Shown here piece by piece: positions 2,985 to 22,312 of a stretch of DNA of 32,000 bases (positions are counted from its first letter, which is position 1; each line of letters begins with the position of its first letter). This DNA comes from Trichlorobacter lovleyi SZ (GTDB lineage: Bacteria; Desulfobacterota; Desulfuromonadia; Geobacterales; Pseudopelobacteraceae), in assembly GCF_000020385.1 (NCBI RefSeq), contig NC_010814.1, forward strand, positions 1,890,001 to 1,922,000. Direction: 5' to 3'. A program made the position numbers and the translations under genes. The notes under the pieces are model-generated. The model worked only from the letters and a program-made list of their open reading frames with translations. It ran no database searches and had not been told where the DNA came from.

Positions 2985-4960
2985 TGGAGTTTAACTTGCT
3001 GAAAGATCTGGTCTTGCTGTTTGGTCTGGCCCTGGTGACGGTGGTGCTGTTCCGGCAGTTCAGGCTGCCTTCCATCATCGGTTTTCTCTGTACCGGTGTG
3101 GTGGCCGGTCCCTATGCGCTGGGGCTGATCAAGGATACCCATCAGGTTGAACAGATGGCTGAGATCGGCGTTGTTCTGCTGCTGTTTACCATCGGGATTG
3201 AGTTCTCGCTGAAGGAGCTGTTGCGGATCAAGCACCTGGTGTTGTGGGGCGGCGGTCTGCAGGTGGGGGTCTCCATCGGCGTGGTGGCCCTGCTCTGGAT
3301 CGCCCTGGGTTTTTCCTGGCAGCAGTCAGTCTTTTTCGGCTTTCTGGTATCGCTCTCCTCAACCGCCATCCTGATGAAGTTGCTGATGGATGCCGGTGAG
3401 ATGGATTCTCCCCACGGCAAGACCTGTCTGGGGATATTGATCTTTCAGGATCTCTGCGTCGTGCCGCTGATGTTGTTTACCCCGTTTCTCGGCGGGGCGG
3501 GCAACGGGCTGACCGGGATTGTGATCGTCTCTGCCAAGGCGCTGGTGGTGGTGGTGGTCTCCCATTTCAGCGCCCGTTTTGCCGTGCCCTGGATCTTTAA
3601 TCAGGTGGTGCGGGCCAAAAGCCGTGAACTGTTTATTCTGACCATCATCTTTGTCGGCTTCGGTACCGCCTTCTTAACGGCGCAGGTCGGGCTTTCCCTG
3701 GCATTGGGGGCCTTTATTGCCGGTCTGGCCATTTCTGAATCGGAATACAGCCATCAGGTTATGGGGGACATCATTCCCTTCCGGGATGCCTTCATGAGCC
3801 TTTTTTTCATCTCGGTCGGCATGTTGCTGGACCCTACTGTGGTGTTGCGTCATCCCCTGATCGTTGTGTTGCTGGTGGCCGGTATCATTCTGATCAAGTG
3901 GCTGGTTGCCGCCGCTGCAGCTCTGGTACTCGGCTTTCCCCCCAAACCTGCCTTTATCAGCGGGCTGCTGCTGGCCCAGGTGGGTGAGTTTGCCTTTGTG
4001 CTGACCCATTCAGGACAGCAGTTCGGTCTGCTGACACCTGACCAGTACCAGCTCTTTCTGGCAGCCTCGGTCGGTACCATGGCGTTAACGCCGTTTTCCC
4101 TACGCTTTGCCGAGCCGATTGCCGGCTGGATTGCCGCCCGTTTACCGACTGCCCTGAAACACGGCAGCCGTACCACCGGCGTGAGCCATGACCGCTTCCC
4201 GATGGATGACCATGTGATCATTGTCGGCTTCGGGGTCAATGGCAAGAACCTGGCCCGGGTGCTGAACGGCAACGGGATCCGCTATATCGCCATTGAAACC
4301 AATCATCATACGGTCAAGGCTGAACGCAAAAAAGGAACCCGGATCATCTTCGGCGATGCCTCCAAGCCGGAAATTCTGCACCATGCCCTGATTGAAAAGG
4401 CCCGGATCATGGTTATTGCCATCTCCGATGCCACCGCTACCCGCAGGATTGCCGCCATTGCACGGCAGATGCGCCCCAACATCCATCTGATTGTCCGTAC
4501 CCGCTATGTGGCTGAGATGGAGCCGCTTTTTCAGTTGGGGGTCAATGATGTGGTGCCGGAGGAGTTTGAAACCTCTGTTGAGATCTTTTCACGGGTGTTG
4601 CGTACCTATCTGATCCCCCATGACCAGATAGATCACTGCATTGCTGAAATCCGGCGGGACTCCTACCAGATGTTCCGCACCATCAGCCGTCGTCACAGTC
4701 ATGCCACCGGCATCTCCGGCTATCTGTCCGGGGTTGAACTGGCCACTTTCCGGGTACAGCCGGGCTCCTCCATTGTCGGCACCCAACTGCGGGACGGTTT
4801 GCTGCGCGAACGTTCCGGTGCTTCTGCCCTGGTGATCAAGCGGGGAGATGAGGTCAACTCCAACCCTGATCCGGTCTGGCAGTTTGAGGTGGATGATATT
4901 GTGCTGGTGCTGGGTAAGCCTGATCAACTGGTCTTTGCGGCTCACCTGTTTGAAACTTAG
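2972..4960 (+). CDS. CPA2-family monovalent cation/H+ antiporter with C-terminal RCK (TrkA-N and TrkA-C) domains (Kef/YbaL-like)
   Basis: About 12 hydrophobic segments, then the Rossmann motif IIVGFGVNGKNLARVL, then a TrkA-C-like tail (VQPGSSIVGTQLRD...DDIVLVLG). The track start is TTG 2972. An in-frame GTG at 2984, 5 nt after GGAGG (2974-2978), is an equally good start. Confidence 0.85.
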   Translation: MEEVVEFNLLKDLVLLFGLALVTVVLFRQFRLPSIIGFLCTGVVAGPYALGLIKDTHQVEQMAEIGVVLLLFTIGIEFSLKELLRIKHLVLWGGGLQVGVSIGVVALLWIALGFSWQQSVFFGFLVSLSSTAILMKLLMDAGEMDSPHGKTCLGILIFQDLCVVPLMLFTPFLGGAGNGLTGIVIVSAKALVVVVVSHFSARFAVPWIFNQVVRAKSRELFILTIIFVGFGTAFLTAQVGLSLALGAFIAGLAISESEYSHQVMGDIIPFRDAFMSLFFISVGMLLDPTVVLRHPLIVVLLVAGIILIKWLVAAAAALVLGFPPKPAFISGLLLAQVGEFAFVLTHSGQQFGLLTPDQYQLFLAASVGTMALTPFSLRFAEPIAGWIAARLPTALKHGSRTTGVSHDRFPMDDHVIIVGFGVNGKNLARVLNGNGIRYIAIETNHHTVKAERKKGTRIIFGDASKPEILHHALIEKARIMVIAISDATATRRIAAIARQMRPNIHLIVRTRYVAEMEPLFQLGVNDVVPEEFETSVEIFSRVLRTYLIPHDQIDHCIAEIRRDSYQMFRTISRRHSHATGISGYLSGVELATFRVQPGSSIVGTQLRDGLLRERSGASALVIKRGDEVNSNPDPVWQFEVDDIVLVLGKPDQLVFAAHLFET

Positions 4961-4991
4961 GGGGTGTTGCGGTGCAACATGTTGCAGGGTA

Positions 4992-5020
4992 TTGACATAA
5001 TATCTGTATATTCATATATT
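4992..5020 (+). promoter_or_regulatory. Candidate sigma70 promoter for the FeS/cytochrome b pair
   Basis: TTGACA (4992-4997), a 17-nt spacer, then TATATT (5015-5020), all within an AT-rich gap. AAGGAG at 5037-5042 lies 8 nt before ATG 5051. Confidence 0.45.
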
Positions 5021-5050
5021 GTTTAAAAATGTAGTAAGGAGCTGATTTTC

Positions 5051-6082
5051 ATGCAACATAATCAAGAAGCAGGTGCTCTTTCACGCCGCGGCCTGTTCAA
5101 GGTTTCCGCGGCATTTCTGGCTGGTGTGAGCGGTCTAGCAACATTGCCCAAACAGCTTCTGGCAGCCCCGCTGGAAGGAAAATTGGTGACTCTGATTGAC
5201 CTGTCCCTCTGTGACGGCTGTGCAGACCGGCCTCAACCGGCCTGTGTCACTTCCTGTAAACAGGAGAAGAACCATACCATCCCGAAGCCGGTTGATCCGA
5301 TTCCATCACCGTTTCCCACTAACATCATTGAAGACTGGTCTAAAAAACAGGAAGTGGCAAACCGCCTGACCCCCTATAACCGGATATTTGTGCAAAAGGC
5401 ACTGGTCACCGTTAATGGGCAGGAAAAGAATCTCTCCATCCCCCGGCGCTGCATGCACTGTGATAACCCTGCCTGTGCCACCATCTGCCCCTTTTCTGCC
5501 AACACCAAGGACAAAAATGGTGCCGTGGTGATTGATCAGGAGCTCTGTTTTGGCGGCGCCAAGTGCAAGACGGTCTGTCCCTGGCAGATTCCCCAGCGTC
5601 AGTCCGGAGTGGGGATTTACCTGAAGGTTGCCAAGGAGTTTATGGGCAATGGGGTGATGTATAAGTGTGATCTTTGCATTGACCGCCTGAGAGCGGGCAG
5701 GACACCGGCCTGTATGGAGGCCTGTCCGAAAAAGGCGATGCTGATCGGTCCCCGTGACCAGATCCATGCTGAAGCAGAAAAACGGGCTGCTGCGTTGGGC
5801 GGCCATATCTTTGGCAGGCAGGAAAACGGTGGCACCTCCACCCTGTATGTTTCATCGGTAGCTTTCAAAGAGCTGGAGCAGAAGCTGTCCCCGGTCTCTG
5901 CTGATCCAAAGAAGGGGCAGCCGCTGCTGAAGCCGGGTGTGAAGCGCAAGATGGCTGAGAGCGACGGACTGGGCAAGGCTGTGCTGGCTGCACCTGCCAT
6001 CGGCCTGGTTGCCGGCCTGGTGGGCGCCTTTGGTAAACTATCGCAACGCAAGGCAGAAAATGCCGGGAAGGAGGAACGCTGA
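5051..6082 (+). CDS. Tat-exported 4x[4Fe-4S] ferredoxin-type subunit (HybA/DmsB/NrfC-like) with a C-terminal membrane anchor
   Basis: Twin-arginine signal SRRGLFKVSAAFLAG. Four Cys clusters: CDGCADRPQPACVTSC, CMHCDNPACATICP, CFGGAKCKTVCP, CDLCIDRLRAGRTPACMEACP. Hydrophobic C-terminal helix AVLAAPAIGLVAGLVGAF. Confidence 0.8.
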   Translation: MQHNQEAGALSRRGLFKVSAAFLAGVSGLATLPKQLLAAPLEGKLVTLIDLSLCDGCADRPQPACVTSCKQEKNHTIPKPVDPIPSPFPTNIIEDWSKKQEVANRLTPYNRIFVQKALVTVNGQEKNLSIPRRCMHCDNPACATICPFSANTKDKNGAVVIDQELCFGGAKCKTVCPWQIPQRQSGVGIYLKVAKEFMGNGVMYKCDLCIDRLRAGRTPACMEACPKKAMLIGPRDQIHAEAEKRAAALGGHIFGRQENGGTSTLYVSSVAFKELEQKLSPVSADPKKGQPLLKPGVKRKMAESDGLGKAVLAAPAIGLVAGLVGAFGKLSQRKAENAGKEER

Positions 6083-6747
6083 TGTCGGCTACGAAACTGG
6101 TAAAACGTCATGAGCTGATTGTTATGCTGGAACATTGGGGCATTGCGATCTCCGGGATAGTGCTGCTGATGAGCGGCATTTTCCAACTGCCCTCGGCTGC
6201 CCGTTACAAGATTACCGCCATTCCCGGTTTCTGGTGGTCGGGCGAGTTCTTTTTCACCCTCAAACTGCACTATATCGCTTCAGTGGTTTTTGTGGGGCTG
6301 GTGCTGTTTCACCTGGTCTACCACCTGTTGTTGCAGGAACGGGCCATGATTCCCCAAAGTGGTGACGTTTCGGAATCCGTCAAGGTGTTAAAAACCTTTA
6401 TCACCAATCAGCCGGAGCCTCCCTTTGGCAAGTATCTGCCTGAGCAACGGCTGGCCTATGTGGCCATTGCAATTCCGGTGCTGATGCTGGTGATTTCCGG
6501 CCTGATCAAGACTTGGAAAAATATCTACACTCCGGACATGGACCGCACCCTGTTGCTTTGGGCCACCTGGGTGCATAACGTTGGCTTTATCCTGTTCTTT
6601 ATGGCCTTTCTGGGACATCTTGCTGCCCTGTTGATCAAACCTAATCGTCCCATGCTGCGGGGGATGCTGACCGGCAAAGTAACGCGGGAGTATGCCGAGC
6701 ACCGCCATCCCCTCTGGGTGAATGAAATAGAGAAAAAGGAGGCTTGA
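6082..6747 (+). CDS. Membrane b-type cytochrome subunit (FdnI / Ni-Fe hydrogenase cytochrome b-like)
   Basis: Four predicted TM helices with conserved His residues (EHWGIAISG, LHYIASVVF..FHLVYH, WVHNVGF..LGHLAAL). The start overlaps the upstream stop by 1 nt (TGATG). Confidence 0.7.
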   Translation: MSATKLVKRHELIVMLEHWGIAISGIVLLMSGIFQLPSAARYKITAIPGFWWSGEFFFTLKLHYIASVVFVGLVLFHLVYHLLLQERAMIPQSGDVSESVKVLKTFITNQPEPPFGKYLPEQRLAYVAIAIPVLMLVISGLIKTWKNIYTPDMDRTLLLWATWVHNVGFILFFMAFLGHLAALLIKPNRPMLRGMLTGKVTREYAEHRHPLWVNEIEKKEA

Positions 6748-6796
6748 CTCTATATCTTGTGTTGTGATAGATAGTTATCCACAACATATTCTGCTG
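6747..6796 (+). promoter_or_regulatory. Candidate tandem NrdR boxes overlapping a candidate nrdD promoter
   Basis: Box 1, ACTCTATATCTTGTGT (6747-6762), matches 14/16 of the published NrdR consensus acaCwAtATaTwGtgt. Box 2, ACAACATATTCTGCTG (6781-6796), is weaker at about 9/16. The candidate promoter is TTGTGA (6762-6767), 17 nt, CATATT (6785-6790), which places the transcription start just before the riboswitch. Confidence 0.4.
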
Positions 6797-6799
6797 TTG

Positions 6800-6976
6800 G
6801 TTGGCAGAAGCACAATACATGATCAACGGTGCCCGCAAGGGCTTGATAGGGAAGTGAGGTGAAATTCCTCCACGGACCCGCCGCTGTAAGCGACGACAAA
6901 GGGCAACACAACCACTGACTGTCAAAGTCGGGAAGGTGCCTGGAGGATGACTCGCAAGTCAGAAGACCTGCCTTGA
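6800..6976 (+). promoter_or_regulatory. Cobalamin (B12) riboswitch aptamer in the nrdD leader
   Basis: Conserved core reads GGTGCC..ATAGGGAAGTGAGGTGAAATTCC..CGGACCCGCCGCTGTAAGC..ACCACTG..GGGAAGG. The B12 box is AGTCAGAAGACCTGCC (6957-6972). P1 can form between GGCAG (6803-6807) and CTGCC (6968-6972). Confidence 0.85.
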
Positions 6977-7040
6977 TCTTACATCATGAAACTCTCCGGG
7001 GATTGGGAGTTGACGCGAGATCAGGCGACGTTAAATTCGG

Positions 7041-7133: not shown

Positions 7134-9143
7134 ATGACCAAACCCGTTCTTGCAGCACCGTTTTTCGTCCTTAAACGCGACGGCACCCGTGCCCCCTTTG
7201 AGGCTTCCCGCATCCAGTCTGCCATCCAGCGGGCAGGCACGGCCACTGCAGAGTTTGGCGATGATGAGGCCATGCTCATCACCAGTCAGGTACTGAAGGT
7301 GCTGCGCCACCGTTTTCCCCAGGAACCGCCCACCATTGAGCAGATTCAGGATGTGGTGGAACAGGCCCTGATCTCGGCCAACCACTTTGCCACCCTGCGG
7401 GCCTATGCGGTCTACCGCGAACAGCGCAGCCGTCTGCGCCAGGACCGCAAAACCGTGGTGGATGTAACCGCCTCGGTCAACGAGTACCTTGACCAGAGCG
7501 ACTGGCGGGTCAGTGCCAATGCCAATCAGGGCTATTCCCTGGGGGGGCTGATCCTGAATCTGTCCGGCAAGGTGATTGCCAACTACTGGCTGAGTCAGGT
7601 CTATCCGTCAGAAGTAGGGGAGGCCCACCGCGACGGTAGCATCCATATCCATGACCTGGATATGCTGTCCGGCTACTGCGCCGGCTGGTCGTTGCGGATG
7701 CTGCTGGCCGAAGGGTTCAACGGTGTGCCGGGCAAGGTGGAGGCAGCGCCGCCCAGACATCTTTCCAGCGCCGTGGGGCAGATCGTCAACTTTCTGGGAA
7801 CCCTGCAGAACGAATGGGCCGGGGCCCAGGCCTTCAGTTCTTTTGATACCTATCTGGCCCCCTATATCCGCAAGGATAGCCTGACCTACGAGGAGGTCAG
7901 ACAGCAGATGCAGGAGCTGATCTTCAACCTGAACGTGCCGTCCCGCTGGGGCACCCAGACCCCCTTTACCAACCTGACCTTTGACTGGACCTGCCCGGAT
8001 GATCTGAAGCAGCAGGTGCCGGTGATTGCCGGTGAAGAGATGCCGTTTACCTACGGCGAGCTGCAGGCCGAAATGGACCTTATCAACCGGGTCTATATCG
8101 AGGTGATGACTGCCGGAGATGCCAAGGGCAGGATCTTTACCTTTCCGATCCCCACCTACAACATCACCCCGGACTTCCCCTGGGAGAGCGAGAATGCCGG
8201 TCTGCTGTTTGCCATGACCGCCCGCTACGGCCTGCCGTACTTCCAGAACTTTGTCAATTCAGAGCTGACCCCCAACATGGTTCGCTCTATGTGCTGCCGC
8301 CTGCAACTTGATCTGAGGGAGCTGCTGAAACGGGGCAACGGCCTGTTCGGTTCAGCCGAGCAGACCGGGTCGCTGGGGGTGGTCACCATCAACTGCGCCC
8401 GCTTGGGGCATCAGCACCAGGGGGATGAGGCAGGGCTGCTGCAACGGCTGGATCAGCTGCTGGAAATCAGCCGCACCAGCCTGGAGATCAAGCGCAAGGT
8501 GATCCAGCGCCATATTGACAACGGCCTGTTTCCCTACACCAAGCGCTACCTGGGCACCCTGCGCAACCACTTCTCCACCATCGGGGTCAACGGCATCAAT
8601 GAAATGATCCGTAACTTCAGCGCGGATCAGGAGGATATCACCACCCCGGCGGGCCACGCCCTGGCCGTACGGCTGCTGGATCACTTGCGCACAAAAATGG
8701 TGGAATTTCAGGAACAGACCGGCCACCTCTACAACCTGGAGGCCACCCCGGCGGAAGGCACCACCTACCGCTTTGCCAGAGAGGACAAGAAACGCTTCCC
8801 GCAGATCCTGCAGGCCGGTACTGCAGATGCGCCTTATTACACCAACTCATCCCAGCTTCCGGTGGGCTTTACCGATGACCCGTTTGAGGCGTTGCAACGC
8901 CAGGAAGAACTGCAGCGCAAGTATACCGGCGGCACGGTGCTGCATCTGTATCTGGGGGAACAGGTCTCCAGTGTGGAGGCCTGCAAAAATCTGGTGCGGC
9001 GCTCGCTGGAGCGGTTCAGGCTGCCCTATGTCACGGTAACGCCGACCTTTTCCATCTGCCCCAAGCATGGCTACTTAAGTGGCGAACACCAGTTCTGCCC
9101 ATTGTGCGATGAAGAACTATCCCGCAGTCAATCCCAACAATAG
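7134..9143 (+). CDS. nrdD: Anaerobic (class III) ribonucleoside-triphosphate reductase, large polypeptide lacking the glycyl-radical segment
   Basis: N-terminal ATP-cone (VLKRDGTRAPFEASRIQSAIQRA...). Long NrdD core with a C-terminal Zn-ribbon-like CPKHGYLSGEHQFCPLC. The ORF stops at TAG 9141-9143, before any RxxGY glycyl-radical motif. AAAGGAG at 7118-7124 precedes ATG 7134. Confidence 0.9.
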   Translation: MTKPVLAAPFFVLKRDGTRAPFEASRIQSAIQRAGTATAEFGDDEAMLITSQVLKVLRHRFPQEPPTIEQIQDVVEQALISANHFATLRAYAVYREQRSRLRQDRKTVVDVTASVNEYLDQSDWRVSANANQGYSLGGLILNLSGKVIANYWLSQVYPSEVGEAHRDGSIHIHDLDMLSGYCAGWSLRMLLAEGFNGVPGKVEAAPPRHLSSAVGQIVNFLGTLQNEWAGAQAFSSFDTYLAPYIRKDSLTYEEVRQQMQELIFNLNVPSRWGTQTPFTNLTFDWTCPDDLKQQVPVIAGEEMPFTYGELQAEMDLINRVYIEVMTAGDAKGRIFTFPIPTYNITPDFPWESENAGLLFAMTARYGLPYFQNFVNSELTPNMVRSMCCRLQLDLRELLKRGNGLFGSAEQTGSLGVVTINCARLGHQHQGDEAGLLQRLDQLLEISRTSLEIKRKVIQRHIDNGLFPYTKRYLGTLRNHFSTIGVNGINEMIRNFSADQEDITTPAGHALAVRLLDHLRTKMVEFQEQTGHLYNLEATPAEGTTYRFAREDKKRFPQILQAGTADAPYYTNSSQLPVGFTDDPFEALQRQEELQRKYTGGTVLHLYLGEQVSSVEACKNLVRRSLERFRLPYVTVTPTFSICPKHGYLSGEHQFCPLCDEELSRSQSQQ

Positions 9144-9156
9144 AAAGGATCGGATT

Positions 9157-9333
9157 ATGAACTCAAAACAACCGCAAACCGCCATCCCTCAGGAACAACG
9201 CCAACCCTGCGAGGTCTGGACCCGCGTGATGGGTTACCACCGCCCGGTGGCATCATTTAACACCGGCAAGAAGTCAGAGTATGCCGATAGACAGTTTTTC
9301 AAGGAAGCTGCATGCTCAGCATCGGCGGACTGA
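9157..9333 (+). CDS. Small ORF (58 aa) encoding the NrdD-type glycyl-radical segment
   Basis: MNSKQPQTAIPQEQRQPCEVWTRVMGYHRPVASFNTGKKSEYADRQFF carries the class III RNR C-terminal signature (RV-GY--PV--(W/F)N-GK--E---R). Its frame is shifted +1 relative to nrdD. AAAGGA at 9144-9149 lies 7 nt before ATG 9157. The 3' end overlaps the nrdG start. Confidence 0.6.
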   Translation: MNSKQPQTAIPQEQRQPCEVWTRVMGYHRPVASFNTGKKSEYADRQFFKEAACSASAD

Positions 9334-9893
9334 CGCCGTTCACCACCATTGATTATCCCGGCAAGCTGGCCGCAGTGGTCTTCTGCCAGGGCTGCCCCTG
9401 GCGCTGCAGCTACTGCCACAACCAGCATCTGCTGGATGCTGGCCAGTCTGGGACAGTGACGTGGCAGGAGATCATCAGGTTTCTTGAACAGCGGCGCAGC
9501 CTGCTGGATGCGGTGGTGTTCAGCGGAGGTGAACCGACTATGCAGCCCACATTGCCGGAGGCTCTGCAAGCGATACGGAGGATGGGGTTTCTGACCGGCC
9601 TCCATACCGGTGGGCCGTACCCGCAACGGCTTGCTGCCTGTCTATCGCAGCTGGATTGGGTGGGAATGGACCTGAAGGCACCCTTTAAACTGTATGATCA
9701 GATCACCGGGGTTGCCGGCAGTGGCACCCTGGCAGAACAGAGTGCAGAACTTTTACGGGCAAGCGGTGTCAGCCATCAGTTCCGCACGACGGTTGATCCG
9801 TTTTTGCTTGCAGACAACAGAATTGAAAAAATGCGGCTGATGGTTGAAGGATTTGGTGCCAAGCTGTTGTTACAACAAGCTTTGCTCCGTTAA
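9312..9893 (+). CDS. nrdG: Anaerobic ribonucleotide reductase activating enzyme (radical SAM)
   Basis: The radical-SAM cluster motif CPWRCSYCHN sits near the N-terminus (IDYPGKLAAVVFCQGCPWRCSYCHN). Size and position, directly after nrdD, are typical. Confidence 0.9.
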   Translation: MLSIGGLTPFTTIDYPGKLAAVVFCQGCPWRCSYCHNQHLLDAGQSGTVTWQEIIRFLEQRRSLLDAVVFSGGEPTMQPTLPEALQAIRRMGFLTGLHTGGPYPQRLAACLSQLDWVGMDLKAPFKLYDQITGVAGSGTLAEQSAELLRASGVSHQFRTTVDPFLLADNRIEKMRLMVEGFGAKLLLQQALLR

Positions 9894-10915: not shown

Positions 10916-11677
10916 TCAGCATTCATCAGAGATGGTGGCTACCCGGTTTCTCCCTGCATGCTTTGCCCGGTAAAGCGCTTTATCAGCTTCAGCAACCAAC
11001 TGCTCAAAATTACCGCCAGGCAGCAAGGCCGCGCTGCCGATACTGACGGTCAGCAGACCGCAGGCATCATAGGGTGGAAACGTAATACTTTCCACCCGCC
11101 TGCGGATCCGGTCTGCAATCTGAAACGCCTCTTCCTCTACGGTCCCCCGCAATAACACCAGAAACTCCTCACCCCCCCAACGGCAGAGCATATCACATCT
11201 GCGTAATGCACTACCCGCAACCTGGGCAAACTTCTTGAGTATCTGGTCTCCGGCAGTATGACCAAAGGTATCATTTACCTTTTTAAAATGATCAATATCT
11301 GCCATCAGCACAGCCAGCGGCAGCTCCTGGTCAGCATATCTGCGTATTTCATGCCGCAGGATCATGTTGGCTGCATGGCGGTTCAGGCAGCCGGTCAGCT
11401 GGTCATAGTTGGCCATATCCCGAAGCGTTTCAAAGTGGCTTTTGATCGGTCGTACGACAATATGGGCAGCCAGCGTGAGGGGGAATGCCAGGCGTGTGCC
11501 GTCAAGGCCCAGCACAACTTTGTGGCTGACCAGCGGGTCAAAATGCAGCATGTCCACCATTCTGCCTTCGCGCAGCCCCATGTCGCGTAATCGTCTGGTG
11601 TCTGAACAATTGCTGTTTATGGCAACGATTTCAGCGGTCTCCCCGGTGTATAGTTCGTTAATGTGGAGTAATGCCAA
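10916..11677 (-). CDS. FeoA-domain / GGDEF-domain fusion (predicted diguanylate cyclase)
   Basis: The N-terminal FeoA-like SH3 domain reads LYTGETAEIVAI...RRLRDMGLREGRMVDML...LGLDGTRLAFPLTLAAHIVV. The C-terminal GGDEF domain has an intact GGEEF active site and an RxxD I-site 5 residues upstream (RRCDMLCRWGGEEF). AAGGAG (11689-11684) lies 6 nt before TTG 11677, so the track start at 11698, which contains the SD, is rejected. Confidence 0.85.
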   Translation of the reverse strand: MALLHINELYTGETAEIVAINSNCSDTRRLRDMGLREGRMVDMLHFDPLVSHKVVLGLDGTRLAFPLTLAAHIVVRPIKSHFETLRDMANYDQLTGCLNRHAANMILRHEIRRYADQELPLAVLMADIDHFKKVNDTFGHTAGDQILKKFAQVAGSALRRCDMLCRWGGEEFLVLLRGTVEEEAFQIADRIRRRVESITFPPYDACGLLTVSIGSAALLPGGNFEQLVAEADKALYRAKHAGRNRVATISDEC

Positions 11678-11692
11678 GGTTATCTCCTTTAA

Positions 11693-11753
11693 TAACAACG
11701 CAGCCAGCCGAAACGGCTCCGAAAGTCTCCTGTTTTGGCTGGCTGCGTTGTTA
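11693..11753 (-). other. Long intercistronic hairpin just upstream of the FeoA-GGDEF RBS
   Basis: 17 perfect base pairs (TAACAACGCAGCCAGCC at 11693-11709 with GGCTGGCTGCGTTGTTA at 11737-11753). The stem extends to about 23 bp if G-U pairs are allowed. No U-tract follows on the minus-strand RNA; the next bases are AUUAAAGGAG. Confidence 0.5.
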
Positions 11754-18298: not shown

Positions 18299-18805
18299 AT
18301 GGCTAATGGACCAAAATCTGAAAAAAATCTACAGGATGCTTTTGCCGGTGAATCCCAGGCTAACCGTAAATATCTGGCATTTGCCAAGCAGGCTGATAAA
18401 GAAGGTTTCCCTCAGGTCGCCCGCCTGTTCCGTGCTGCTGCCGAGGCAGAGACGGTGCATGCCCATAATCACTTGAAGGCGCTTGGCGGGATCAAAACCA
18501 CCAGGGAAAACCTGGTGGAGGCAATTGGCGGCGAGACCCATGAGTTTAAAGAGATGTATCCACCCATGATTGAAGCTGCCAAGGAAGATGGCGCTGCTGA
18601 AGCCCTGCGTTCCTTTACCTATGCCAATACTGTGGAAAAGACCCATGCCGAGCTGTATCAAAAGGCCTTTGATACCCTTGGCCAGACTGGTGAACAGTTT
18701 GATTACTATGTTTGTCCGATCTGCGGTCATACGGTAGAAAAGGGTGCGCCGGACAAGTGCGAGGTCTGTGGAGCTGCCGGTTCGGTATTTGTGCAGATTA
18801 AGTAG
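18299..18805 (+). CDS. rbr: Rubrerythrin (ferritin-like diiron domain plus C-terminal rubredoxin-like CxxC...CxxC)
   Basis: LQDAFAGESQANRKYLAFA...EAETVHAHNH..., then CPICGH...CEVCGA. Confidence 0.9.
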   Translation: MANGPKSEKNLQDAFAGESQANRKYLAFAKQADKEGFPQVARLFRAAAEAETVHAHNHLKALGGIKTTRENLVEAIGGETHEFKEMYPPMIEAAKEDGAAEALRSFTYANTVEKTHAELYQKAFDTLGQTGEQFDYYVCPICGHTVEKGAPDKCEVCGAAGSVFVQIK

Positions 18806-18908: not shown

Positions 18909-21221
<2,313 letters not shown>

Positions 21222-21733: not shown

Positions 21734-22312
21734 ATGTCCAAGTCAGTCAAAGGCACCAAGACCGAACAGAACCTGCTGAAATCATTTGCCGGTGAGAGTC
21801 AGGCACGCATGCGCTATACCTACTTTTCCGCTGCTGCCAAAAAAGAAGGCTACGTGCAGATCGCTGATATCTTTGAGGAGACCGCCAACCAGGAAAAGGA
21901 ACACGCCAAGCGCTTTTTCAAATTTCTGGAAGGTGGCATGGTGGAGATCACCGCCTGTTTTCCGGCCGGTGTGATCGGTACCACAGCCGAGAACCTGCTG
22001 GCAGCTGCCAATGGTGAGCATGAAGAACACACTGAGCTGTATCCTGCCTTTGCTGCAGTTGCCAAGGAAGAGGGGTTTGCCGAGATTGCAGCTGTCTGGA
22101 ACGCAATATCAGTAGCAGAAAAACAACATGAAAAGCGCTATCGCGATCTGTTGGCAAATATTGAGGCCGGCCGCGTCTTCCAGCGGGAAGAGATTGTGGT
22201 CTGGCGCTGCCGTAACTGTGGCTACCTGCACAGCAATAAATCAGCACCGGAACTGTGTCCGGCCTGTGCCCATCCGATGGCTCACTTTGAACTACTGGGT
22301 GAAAACTGGTAG
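21734..22312 (+). CDS. rbr: Rubrerythrin (classical ~191-aa type)
   Basis: KGTKTEQNLLKSFAGESQARMRYTYFSAAAKKEGYVQIADIFEETANQEKEHAKRFFKFLEGG. C-terminal CRNCGY...CPACAH. Confidence 0.95.
   Translation: MSKSVKGTKTEQNLLKSFAGESQARMRYTYFSAAAKKEGYVQIADIFEETANQEKEHAKRFFKFLEGGMVEITACFPAGVIGTTAENLLAAANGEHEEHTELYPAFAAVAKEEGFAEIAAVWNAISVAEKQHEKRYRDLLANIEAGRVFQREEIVVWRCRNCGYLHSNKSAPELCPACAHPMAHFELLGENW

Follow-up and report, generated by a model that had tools for sequence, protein, structure and literature searches.

A probable two-gene class III ribonucleotide reductase in Trichlorobacter lovleyi SZ, with the glycyl-radical element on a separate small peptide

The nrdD locus of Trichlorobacter lovleyi SZ was analysed within a window of 32,000 nt (assembly GCF_000020385.1, contig NC_010814.1, positions 1,890,001–1,922,000, forward strand), the term window designating here this whole stretch of DNA. 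While the field treats NrdD, the catalytic protein of the class III ribonucleotide reductase (RNR), as one polypeptide, in the window the RVxGY radical motif is missing from the 669-aa nrdD open reading frame (ORF) and is found solely in a separate 58-aa ORF. It is highly probable that the enzyme is made of two polypeptides, and a two-gene class III RNR, with the radical element on a separate peptide acting in trans, is the best explanation overall and a very probable one. Among the explanations put forward in a preliminary description of this DNA, a genuine two-polypeptide NrdD is the one borne out, on the basis of its occurrence in at least 600 species, of selection in the peptide's own frame, of the start codon and Shine-Dalgarno (SD) sequence found at related loci, of the layout of the Cupriavidus necator megaplasmid pHG1 and of phage-borne solo genes, all detailed below. 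The elements of the locus are the following:

7134–9143, + strand: nrdD large (catalytic) subunit, 669 aa, with ATP-cone, alpha/beta barrel and Zn ribbon, without glycyl-radical loop.
7164–7430, + strand: ATP-cone domain, large-subunit residues 11–99 (PF03477, E = 1.3e-22).
8289–8300, + strand: MCCR motif, residues 386–389, read from the translation (...VRSMCCRLQLD...).
9057–9107, + strand: Zn ribbon C642-x2-H645-x9-C655-x2-C658, last conserved element of the large subunit (alignment to Thermotoga maritima 4COI, 547–610).
9144–9149, + strand: SD sequence AAAGGA of the small ORF, 7 nt 5' of ATG 9157.
9157–9333, + strand: small subunit, 58 aa, +1 frame, with ATG at 9157, stop at 9331–9333 and its own SD sequence.
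9312–9893, + strand: nrdG, radical S-adenosylmethionine (SAM) activase, 193 aa (TIGR02495 NrdG2; Radical_SAM and Fer4_12).

The large ORF terminates with ...FSICPKHGYLSGEHQFCPLCDEELSRSQSQQ, followed by the TAG stop codon at 9141–9143; in the ribbon, C655 is invariant and C642 and C658 are nearly so. The small ORF is translated as MNSKQPQTAIPQEQRQPCEVWTRVMGYHRPVASFNTGKKSEYADRQFFKEAACSASAD, with the radical glycine at position 26 (motif RVMG26Y, codon GGT at 9232–9234), and comprises a variable segment (residues 1–14), an invariant glycyl-radical core (R15–R45) and a variable tail. Large subunit, small peptide and nrdG follow each other in this order in one operon, the last 22 nt of the small ORF being shared with the start of nrdG, and no promoter-like or terminator-like site was found between the large and the small ORFs. 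The preliminary description had placed the nrdD stop at TAG 9141–9143 after a Zn-ribbon-like segment, and the radical motif only in the +1 frame, with ATG 9157 preceded by AAAGGA at ideal spacing; these coordinates and sequence facts hold, and the ribbon aligns to that of T. maritima. Of the range 9079–9333 that it had assigned to the ORF, the end stands, whereas 9079 is just the first GTG of the stop-to-stop frame and homologues align to ATG 9157.

Profile searches assigned both products to a single family. The large ORF matched NF006126 (684 positions) with 1132.7 bits (cut-off 548) over positions 5–651, and the Pfam family NRDD PF13597 (562 positions) with 578 bits over positions 2–529, while the small ORF covered only the extreme C-terminus of the same models (positions 648–683 and 531–562, respectively). 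Since the two coverages abut, the ORFs represent complementary parts of one family model. In the Pfam and NCBIfam scans (E <= 0.01), the 58-aa ORF retrieved NrdD models only, with no match to the Gly_radical model of pyruvate formate-lyase (PFL) type or to GrcA models; nrdG scored 193.5 bits with TIGR02495 NrdG2, against a cut-off of 131. In the alignment to T. maritima NrdD (4COI), the large ORF stops at the ribbon (residue 610) and the peptide resumes at the radical strand (residue 614), so that about 27 additional residues, a stop and a restart occupy the junction where the fused T. maritima enzyme has about 3 residues. The T. maritima ribbon motif CxxxHx6CxxC was shown to bind Zn in a Cys3His site, and the SCCR motif of this enzyme carries essential cysteines (PMC4493059). 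The group NrdDh4 was defined by MCCR replacing SCCR between strands betaE and betaF, in an account that makes no comment on the C-terminus (Aurelius et al. 2015, PMC4493059). By its MCCR, the window enzyme is assigned on sequence grounds to NrdDh4, and by every testable feature except the single-polypeptide make-up the system reads as a class III RNR. MCCR was ruled out as a marker of the split, the representatives bearing it being 22 fused and 30 split.

An AlphaFold2 model was obtained for the large and small chains joined in silico, using a 30-row alignment (mean predicted local distance difference test score, pLDDT, 89.1; predicted template modelling score, pTM, 0.82). In this model the tail of the large subunit (656–669) is helical, the N-terminus of the peptide is coil (pLDDT of about 78) and the peptide core forms a beta-hairpin (688–693 and 696–699) with the radical glycine (model residue 695) at its tip. 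The model matches the solved NrdDs of P. copri, S. thermophilus, T. maritima and T4 with E values from 1e-32 to 1e-22, which supports the expectation that the peptide would plug into the barrel like the loop of fused enzymes.

The split is widely recurrent. At least 22 contigs, drawn from independent assemblies of NCBI, ENA, JGI and Logan, encode the identical 58-aa protein, each with products of 669, 58 and 193 aa, an agreement that exceeds chance by far. A homology search with the peptide matched 4,834 clusters, the best 120 of which are all 44–90 aa in length and include RefSeq proteins of Geobacter, G. sulfurreducens, Cupriavidus metallidurans and Thauera. When one genome per species was scanned, the stand-alone peptide was present in at least 600 species genomes; the matches listed include Beta-, Gamma- and Alphaproteobacteria, Geobacterales and Desulfovibrionaceae, together with metagenome-assembled genomes (MAGs) labelled Elusimicrobiota, Verrucomicrobiota, Parachlamydiales and Obscuribacteraceae. 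The small stand-alone peptides span 43–80 aa and share the invariant RVMGY core. Stop codon, SD sequence and ATG, whose conservation in relatives had been proposed as a check in the preliminary description, were compared at 77 loci carrying both genes. The small ORF starts with ATG in all 77 and an SD match of at least 4 nt precedes it in 74, whereas the large gene ends with TGA in 43 loci, TAA in 20 and TAG in 14; the distance between the two genes has a median of 31 nt, the extremes being -26 (overlap) and +298 nt, and the genes overlap in 8 loci.

Conservation of the peptide was evaluated on its 31-codon core in 66 genomes, where variable third positions (29) far exceed variable second positions (8), 18 residue columns are invariant, and the codon differences from the window amount to 757 synonymous versus 346 non-synonymous. 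Such a pattern indicates that the frame of the peptide itself is under strong purifying selection. In an alignment of 24 peptides the invariant core reads RQPCEVWTRVMGYHRPV..FN.GK..E...R, while N-terminus and tail vary freely; R23, V24, M25, G26, Y27, R29, P30, N35, G37, K38, E41 and R45 are found in every one of the 81 genomic and 80 viral copies. Cys18 (window 9208–9210, RQPCEVW), the residue just ahead of the radical strand, is shared by all 81 genomic copies and by 78 of the 80 viral ones, and fused relatives often have it too; Thr takes its place in the L094 clade (locus handles of this type are ours) and Val in two viral copies. Cys18 as a fourth Zn ligand joining the two chains was dropped as a general mechanism, the Cys3His ribbon of the large subunit being complete by analogy with T. 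maritima.

The layout is also present in an organism where the function has been followed in vivo. On the megaplasmid pHG1 of C. necator H16, RefSeq lists a 676-aa 'ribonucleoside triphosphate reductase', a 66-aa coding sequence (CDS) named 'nrdD' and an overlapping activase. The nrdDG genes of H16 are essential for complete (anaerobic) denitrification, and cobalamin rescues the defect via NrdJ, as reported in the genome paper of C. metallidurans CH34 (PMC2864759), where the CH34 nrd genes are listed as Rmet_5137 and Rmet_5139 and the intervening Rmet_5138 is unmentioned. The split layout of pHG1, combined with the reported need of nrdDG in anaerobic growth, suggests that the split form works in vivo.

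To place split and fused forms within the family, 1.84 billion cluster representatives were searched with the large subunit, giving 7,121 matches at E <= 1e-3, and the best 150 were classified by their C-terminus. About 61 of these end 0–44 residues past the ribbon without radical motif and about 46 are fused (ribbon, 3–8 residues, then EV[YW]SR[VI]xGY); the remainder are fragments, indel-damaged sequences, variant-ribbon proteins (CPxHG...CPYxH) ending without radical loop, or proteins with a C-terminal redoxin-like domain. On a rough neighbour-joining tree of intein-free cores from 97 taxa, the clade of the window is nearly all split, with three fused exceptions, and in the remaining tree the two forms are intermixed; parsimony counts about 17 changes of state. 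Three distant split-looking clades were checked, each having an NRDD-matching ORF of 43–64 aa with a strong SD sequence directly downstream. Locus L058, considered as a natural in-frame fused relative, was ruled out, its nrdD being broken into three frames by indels in a long-read MAG.

Several further variants were observed in the same group of proteins. A variant-ribbon clade (P0146, P0147, P0151, P0161, P0174, P0178, P0183 and L096) bears CPVHGYIPGxHxxCPYxH and a long acidic or helical tail, and is also split, a 60-aa peptide gene lying 90 nt downstream in L096. A glutaredoxin/NrdH-like C-terminal domain (TCPNC...) occurs in P0136, P0141, P0157, P0172, P0187 and P0196, with no radical motif seen in their last 120 residues. 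Many of the nearest NrdD representatives (P0121–P0270) are 1,000–1,880 aa long with 2–5 matched stretches; Intein_splicing or LAGLIDADG matches were found in L094 and L097, and inteins are very common in this NrdD group. In L011, a Geobacteraceae MAG with a large subunit 95% identical to that of the window, an insertion of about 1.2 kb lies in the small-ORF/nrdG junction (3766–5554) and encodes a 312-aa protein with a PEP-CTERM-like end (4356–5294). A first small-ORF copy (RQAC for RQPC) and a truncated nrdG start precede the insertion, and a second, N-terminally truncated copy overlapping an intact nrdG follows it, indicating that the junction was duplicated around the insertion.

The peptide gene was also found on its own. 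Eight genome loci have no intact large subunit 5' of it, and in seven of them (L023, L030, L039, L051, L061, L070 and L082) no large subunit was detectable within the approximately 8 kb examined. In L030 (4001–4756) and L051 (3821–4583), the peptide gene follows a UvrD-like helicase gene and lies 37–44 nt 5' of a rubrerythrin gene, with neither nrdD large subunit nor nrdG found in these loci; this layout may connect spare peptide copies with oxidative stress. L039 and L082, both from Sutterella MAGs, carry the orphan peptide among unrelated neighbours, and in L070 its gene comes directly after that of a phage lysozyme. Upstream of the peptide gene of L023 lies a fragment of a class I/II RNR barrel, and downstream of it a single-stranded DNA-binding protein gene, while in L061 nrdG alone is retained. 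The eighth locus (L036, 2990–6372) is decaying: its peptide gene is intact, but just fragments of the large subunit are left, a radical-SAM gene has inserted, and nrdG is truncated and altered in its cluster cysteines. The invariant core is retained in the peptides of all eight. On a Bradyrhizobium japonicum plasmid (L092, NZ_CP066353.1), two places match the peptide; the gene table has a small 'nrdD' and an activase, and lists no large-subunit CDS in the 2.6 kb upstream, where a pseudogene or an unlisted gene may lie.

A scan of IMG/VR identified 324 viral contigs encoding the peptide, the best 80 of which were searched by profile hidden Markov models for large NrdD and NrdG. Large NrdD was found in 7 and NrdG in none, so that 73 of the 80 have neither within the contig sequence examined. 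These 73 orphan loci contain 55 distinct intact peptide ORFs of 48–90 aa; in 45 of the loci, the contig extends from the peptide gene by 2.2 kb or more on the 5' side and by 700 bp or more on the 3' side. All 80 viral copies retain the radical glycine with its motif. When the neighbouring genes of 51 non-redundant orphan loci were pooled, they matched endolysins, Rz-like spanins, integrases, terminases, portal and head-tail adaptor proteins, and in two viral loci the peptide gene is located within tail and head gene modules. The corresponding PHROGs family, phrog_4132, is labelled 'unknown function'. A tblastn search of 50,697 GenBank phage records with the prophage-type peptide gave no match, indicating that the carriers are uncultured or prophage sequences. 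The seven viral loci with a large NrdD beside the peptide (L109, L110, L111, L121, L133, L136 and L177, all IMG/VR contigs, several of them of 64–108 kb) have it as a separate gene or, in L177, fused, and no NrdG-like gene was found in the contig sequence examined.

In Parasutterella, an orphan peptide (RefSeq protein WP_283387710.1) was retrieved on 892 contigs. In ten or more contexts, holin, phage lysozyme and a 123-aa ORF precede the peptide in this order, and a phage integrase or host DNA follows it, the latter flank corresponding to RNase R ... S6-S18-L9-DnaB, with one instance on a 2.77-Mb chromosome (GCA_027494185.1). The canonical system is also present in this genus, as large subunit P0551, named 'Parasutterella secunda', and in the closely related loci L098–L107. 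Peptide genes carried by phages without large subunit or NrdG make sense only if the peptide joins a large subunit and an activase encoded by the host, and these solo genes are the strongest argument for what would be a modular, trans-acting use.

A working scheme can be drawn for the two-gene enzyme. The 669-aa subunit would supply the ATP-cone, the ten-stranded barrel with the MCCR motif and the Zn ribbon, and the 58-aa peptide, independently translated, would supply the glycyl-radical loop and the C-terminal tail. From what is known of the family, NrdG would abstract a hydrogen atom from Gly26 of the peptide and the radical would then pass from Gly26 to the cysteine loop, the peptide hairpin docking into the barrel as homology and the joined-chain model suggest. 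Oxygen cleaves glycyl-radical proteins at the radical glycine (PMC13450708), so that with a separate peptide the damage would be limited to a part of about 6 kDa: after cleavage at Gly26, the intact 669-aa subunit could be re-armed with a fresh, NrdG-activated peptide. Such an exchange role, by which a cell or a phage would re-arm the large subunit by swapping a part of about 60 aa, is inferred and has somewhat under an even chance of being correct. Temperate and virulent phages may bring their own copies, beside lysis or integrase genes, to keep the anaerobic deoxyribonucleoside triphosphate (dNTP) supply of the host running, and repeated fission at exactly one site in the NrdD tree may reflect selection for repairability. 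Taken together, the proposal of a freely exchangeable radical cartridge of about 60 aa, with phage copies sustaining host dNTP supply and fissions selected for repairability, is put forward tentatively.

Several points weigh against the two-gene enzyme acting in trans or against its exchange role. Production of the peptide, its radical and its binding to the large subunit rest on comparison or modelling, and the AlphaFold2 model is one joined chain and no true two-chain complex. The canonical large subunit is without a radical loop of its own; the peptide is there an obligate subunit rather than a spare, and need never be exchanged. The neighbour-joining tree is rough, leaving the count of independent fissions uncertain. 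Of the 73 orphan viral loci, 13 extend for under 2.2 kb on the upstream side and 15 others for under 700 bp on the downstream side, where a large subunit or nrdG may lie beyond the contig, and IMG/VR contigs may include host flanks. Finally, cluster and contig look-ups did not find an orphan and a canonical locus in one genome, their co-occurrence being at genus level only, in Parasutterella.

The most serious alternative is neutral gene fission, in which the peptide is a permanently bound stoichiometric subunit with no adaptive meaning and no part in exchange or repair. The genes being adjacent, co-transcribed and often translationally coupled, as the short median gap and the 8 overlaps indicate, is what this explanation expects, as is a large subunit that cannot work without the peptide; fused relatives in the same clade imply that both forms are viable. 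Against it, the cut recurs at one point in several distant clades and the split form persists in at least 600 species. The chief objection comes from the conserved, intact peptide genes standing alone in phages and in some bacterial genomes, which are sensible only if their product joins a large subunit encoded elsewhere, with some benefit. We regard neutral fission as a real contender, with somewhat under an even chance; for the chromosomal copies, a permanently bound subunit that arose in this way is plausible.

It could also be supposed that stand-alone peptides, phage ones especially, are regulators or decoys that occupy the large subunit or NrdG without catalysis, for instance blocking anaerobic dNTP synthesis of the host. 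A phage could benefit from manipulating host nucleotide metabolism, and the orphan copies are in moron-like positions. Nevertheless, the radical glycine and the whole activation motif are as fully conserved in the viral copies as in the chromosomal ones, which is not expected of a pure blocker, even if a tight turn might need a glycine; this explanation is improbable.

A programmed +1 frameshift, or stop read-through, giving a single fused NrdD with no separate translation of the small ORF, had been listed as a possibility in the preliminary description. The window taken alone would allow it, the +1 frame being open from 9079, and a single shift ahead of the TAG would be enough to fuse both ORFs. 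The relatives speak otherwise: the small ORF is in the +1, +2 and 0 frame relative to the large gene in 28, 26 and 23 of the 77 loci, about equally, the gaps reach 298 nt, and in 34 loci a stop codon in the small-ORF frame lies between the genes, where a single frameshift cannot fuse them. The near-constant ATG and SD sequence of the small ORFs, and orphan copies with nothing upstream to fuse to, point the same way, and recoding is refuted. Also considered earlier was an nrdD that is normally fused and was here broken by a frameshift mutation or by a fault in sequencing or assembly, which would make the locus a pseudogene or an artefact. Although indel-ridden assemblies such as that of L058 exist, this explanation is refuted by the identical arrangement in at least 22 assemblies from different projects, the about 27 additional junction residues and the SD sequence with respect to fused forms, and the purifying selection on the small ORF.

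The two-gene enzyme was then compared with known systems. It shares with fused NrdDh proteins (T. maritima 4COI/4U3E and N. bacilliformis NrdD) the family (NF006126, PF13597), the fold, the Cys/His Zn ribbon, the [S/M]CCR motif, the RVxGY loop and the adjacent radical-SAM activase, and differs from them in having a gene of its own for the radical loop and the C-terminal tail, with about 11 additional residues on the large-subunit end and about 17 on the N-terminus of the peptide. As far as the sources searched show, no NrdD of two-chain type has been solved or biochemically studied. Split RNRs are otherwise known for class II only: NrdJa/NrdJb of Pseudomonas aeruginosa likewise distributes a catalytic RNR over two adjacent genes with a C-terminal module on the second (PMC9669993), but it belongs to another class, uses a B12 cofactor, and NrdJb is not a radical carrier. 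Class I NrdA/NrdB also stores the radical on a polypeptide apart from the catalytic barrel; NrdB is, however, a ferritin-like metalloprotein whose radical is made with oxygen and transferred over a long distance, whereas the short peptide loop of the window is expected to insert directly into the barrel.

The closest functional parallel is given by GrcA/YfiD of E. coli and Y06I of phage T4, small solo proteins in which a glycyl-radical loop follows an N-terminus that is variable or disordered, and which are presumably activated by the activase of the parent enzyme. A phage-encoded version exists in both cases, T4 Y06I being a GrcA homologue (PMC13450708, PMC8683613). The likeness to GrcA/YfiD drawn in the preliminary description thus stands as a functional analogy and fails as family membership, since the window peptide is not homologous at family level and matches NRDD models. 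Nor does it extend to backing up an enzyme with a radical domain of its own: GrcA, of about 14 kDa, does so for PFL, whereas the canonical NrdD large subunit has none, and a repair function of the NrdD peptide would be an extension by analogy.

Formate lyases are the only glycyl radical enzymes with identified spare-part proteins, the existence of others being yet to be settled according to a June 2026 review (PMC13450708), and whether spare parts exist for such enzymes other than PFL has been posed as a question (PMC8683613, 2021; PMC13450708). If the proposed role is true, the peptide would for the first time extend spare-part-type proteins beyond PFL to another glycyl radical enzyme, and a common natural system in which the class III radical element is a peptide of about 6 kDa makes the question testable. 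No description of a split NrdD was found in 8 million full texts, though papers on A. eutrophus nrdDG (Siedow et al. 1999) and N. bacilliformis NrdD (Wei et al. 2014) may mention the small ORF. The small CDS can already be seen in public annotation, so that nothing is new about the sequence itself; what appears to be new is to recognise an architecture in its own right, widespread and with copies in phages. The split form is found in Geobacter, Cupriavidus, Thauera, Pseudomonas spp. and gut Sutterellaceae, well-studied and medically relevant groups, and has practical consequences. RefSeq names the 66-aa CDS 'nrdD' and genome papers pass over the small gene; phylogenies based on length-filtered or C-terminus-scored sequence sets will mis-score split enzymes, and heterologous expression of the large gene by itself should give an inactive product. 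As for phrog_4132, it gains a candidate role as an auxiliary metabolic gene.

Two kinds of putative regulatory elements were found upstream of the operon:

6809–6989, + strand: cobalamin riboswitch in the 386-nt nrdD leader (RF00174, 109.4 bits, gathering threshold 31.5, E = 9.3e-28, full model 1–189).
6747–6762 (1 mismatch) and 6779–6794 (3 mismatches), + strand: two NrdR-box-like palindromes, putative repressor sites, directly 5' of the riboswitch and with centres 32 bp apart.

The riboswitch in the leader implies B12-dependent shut-off of the B12-independent anaerobic RNR. The NrdR-box-like pattern does not occur above chance across the window (8 found versus 9.3 expected), and leader position and spacing alone speak for the pair as repressor sites, a suggestive assignment. 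Judged from sequence, riboswitch and palindromes together look like the control logic of a working B12-independent RNR.

As to the oxygen-stress neighbourhood noticed in the preliminary description, rubrerythrins and a KatG-type peroxidase are present 9–12 kb downstream, but their bearing on the split is only circumstantial. The rubrerythrin genes (18299–18805 and 21734–22312) flank that of the KatG-type catalase-peroxidase (18966–21221). The surroundings of this oxidative-stress cluster, which include Feo iron uptake and multihaem cytochromes, otherwise look anaerobic. At 10916–11698, on the - strand, a gene encodes a protein with N-terminal FeoA and a GGDEF diguanylate cyclase, adjoining feoB and two outer-membrane genes of the Phenol_MetA_deg family.

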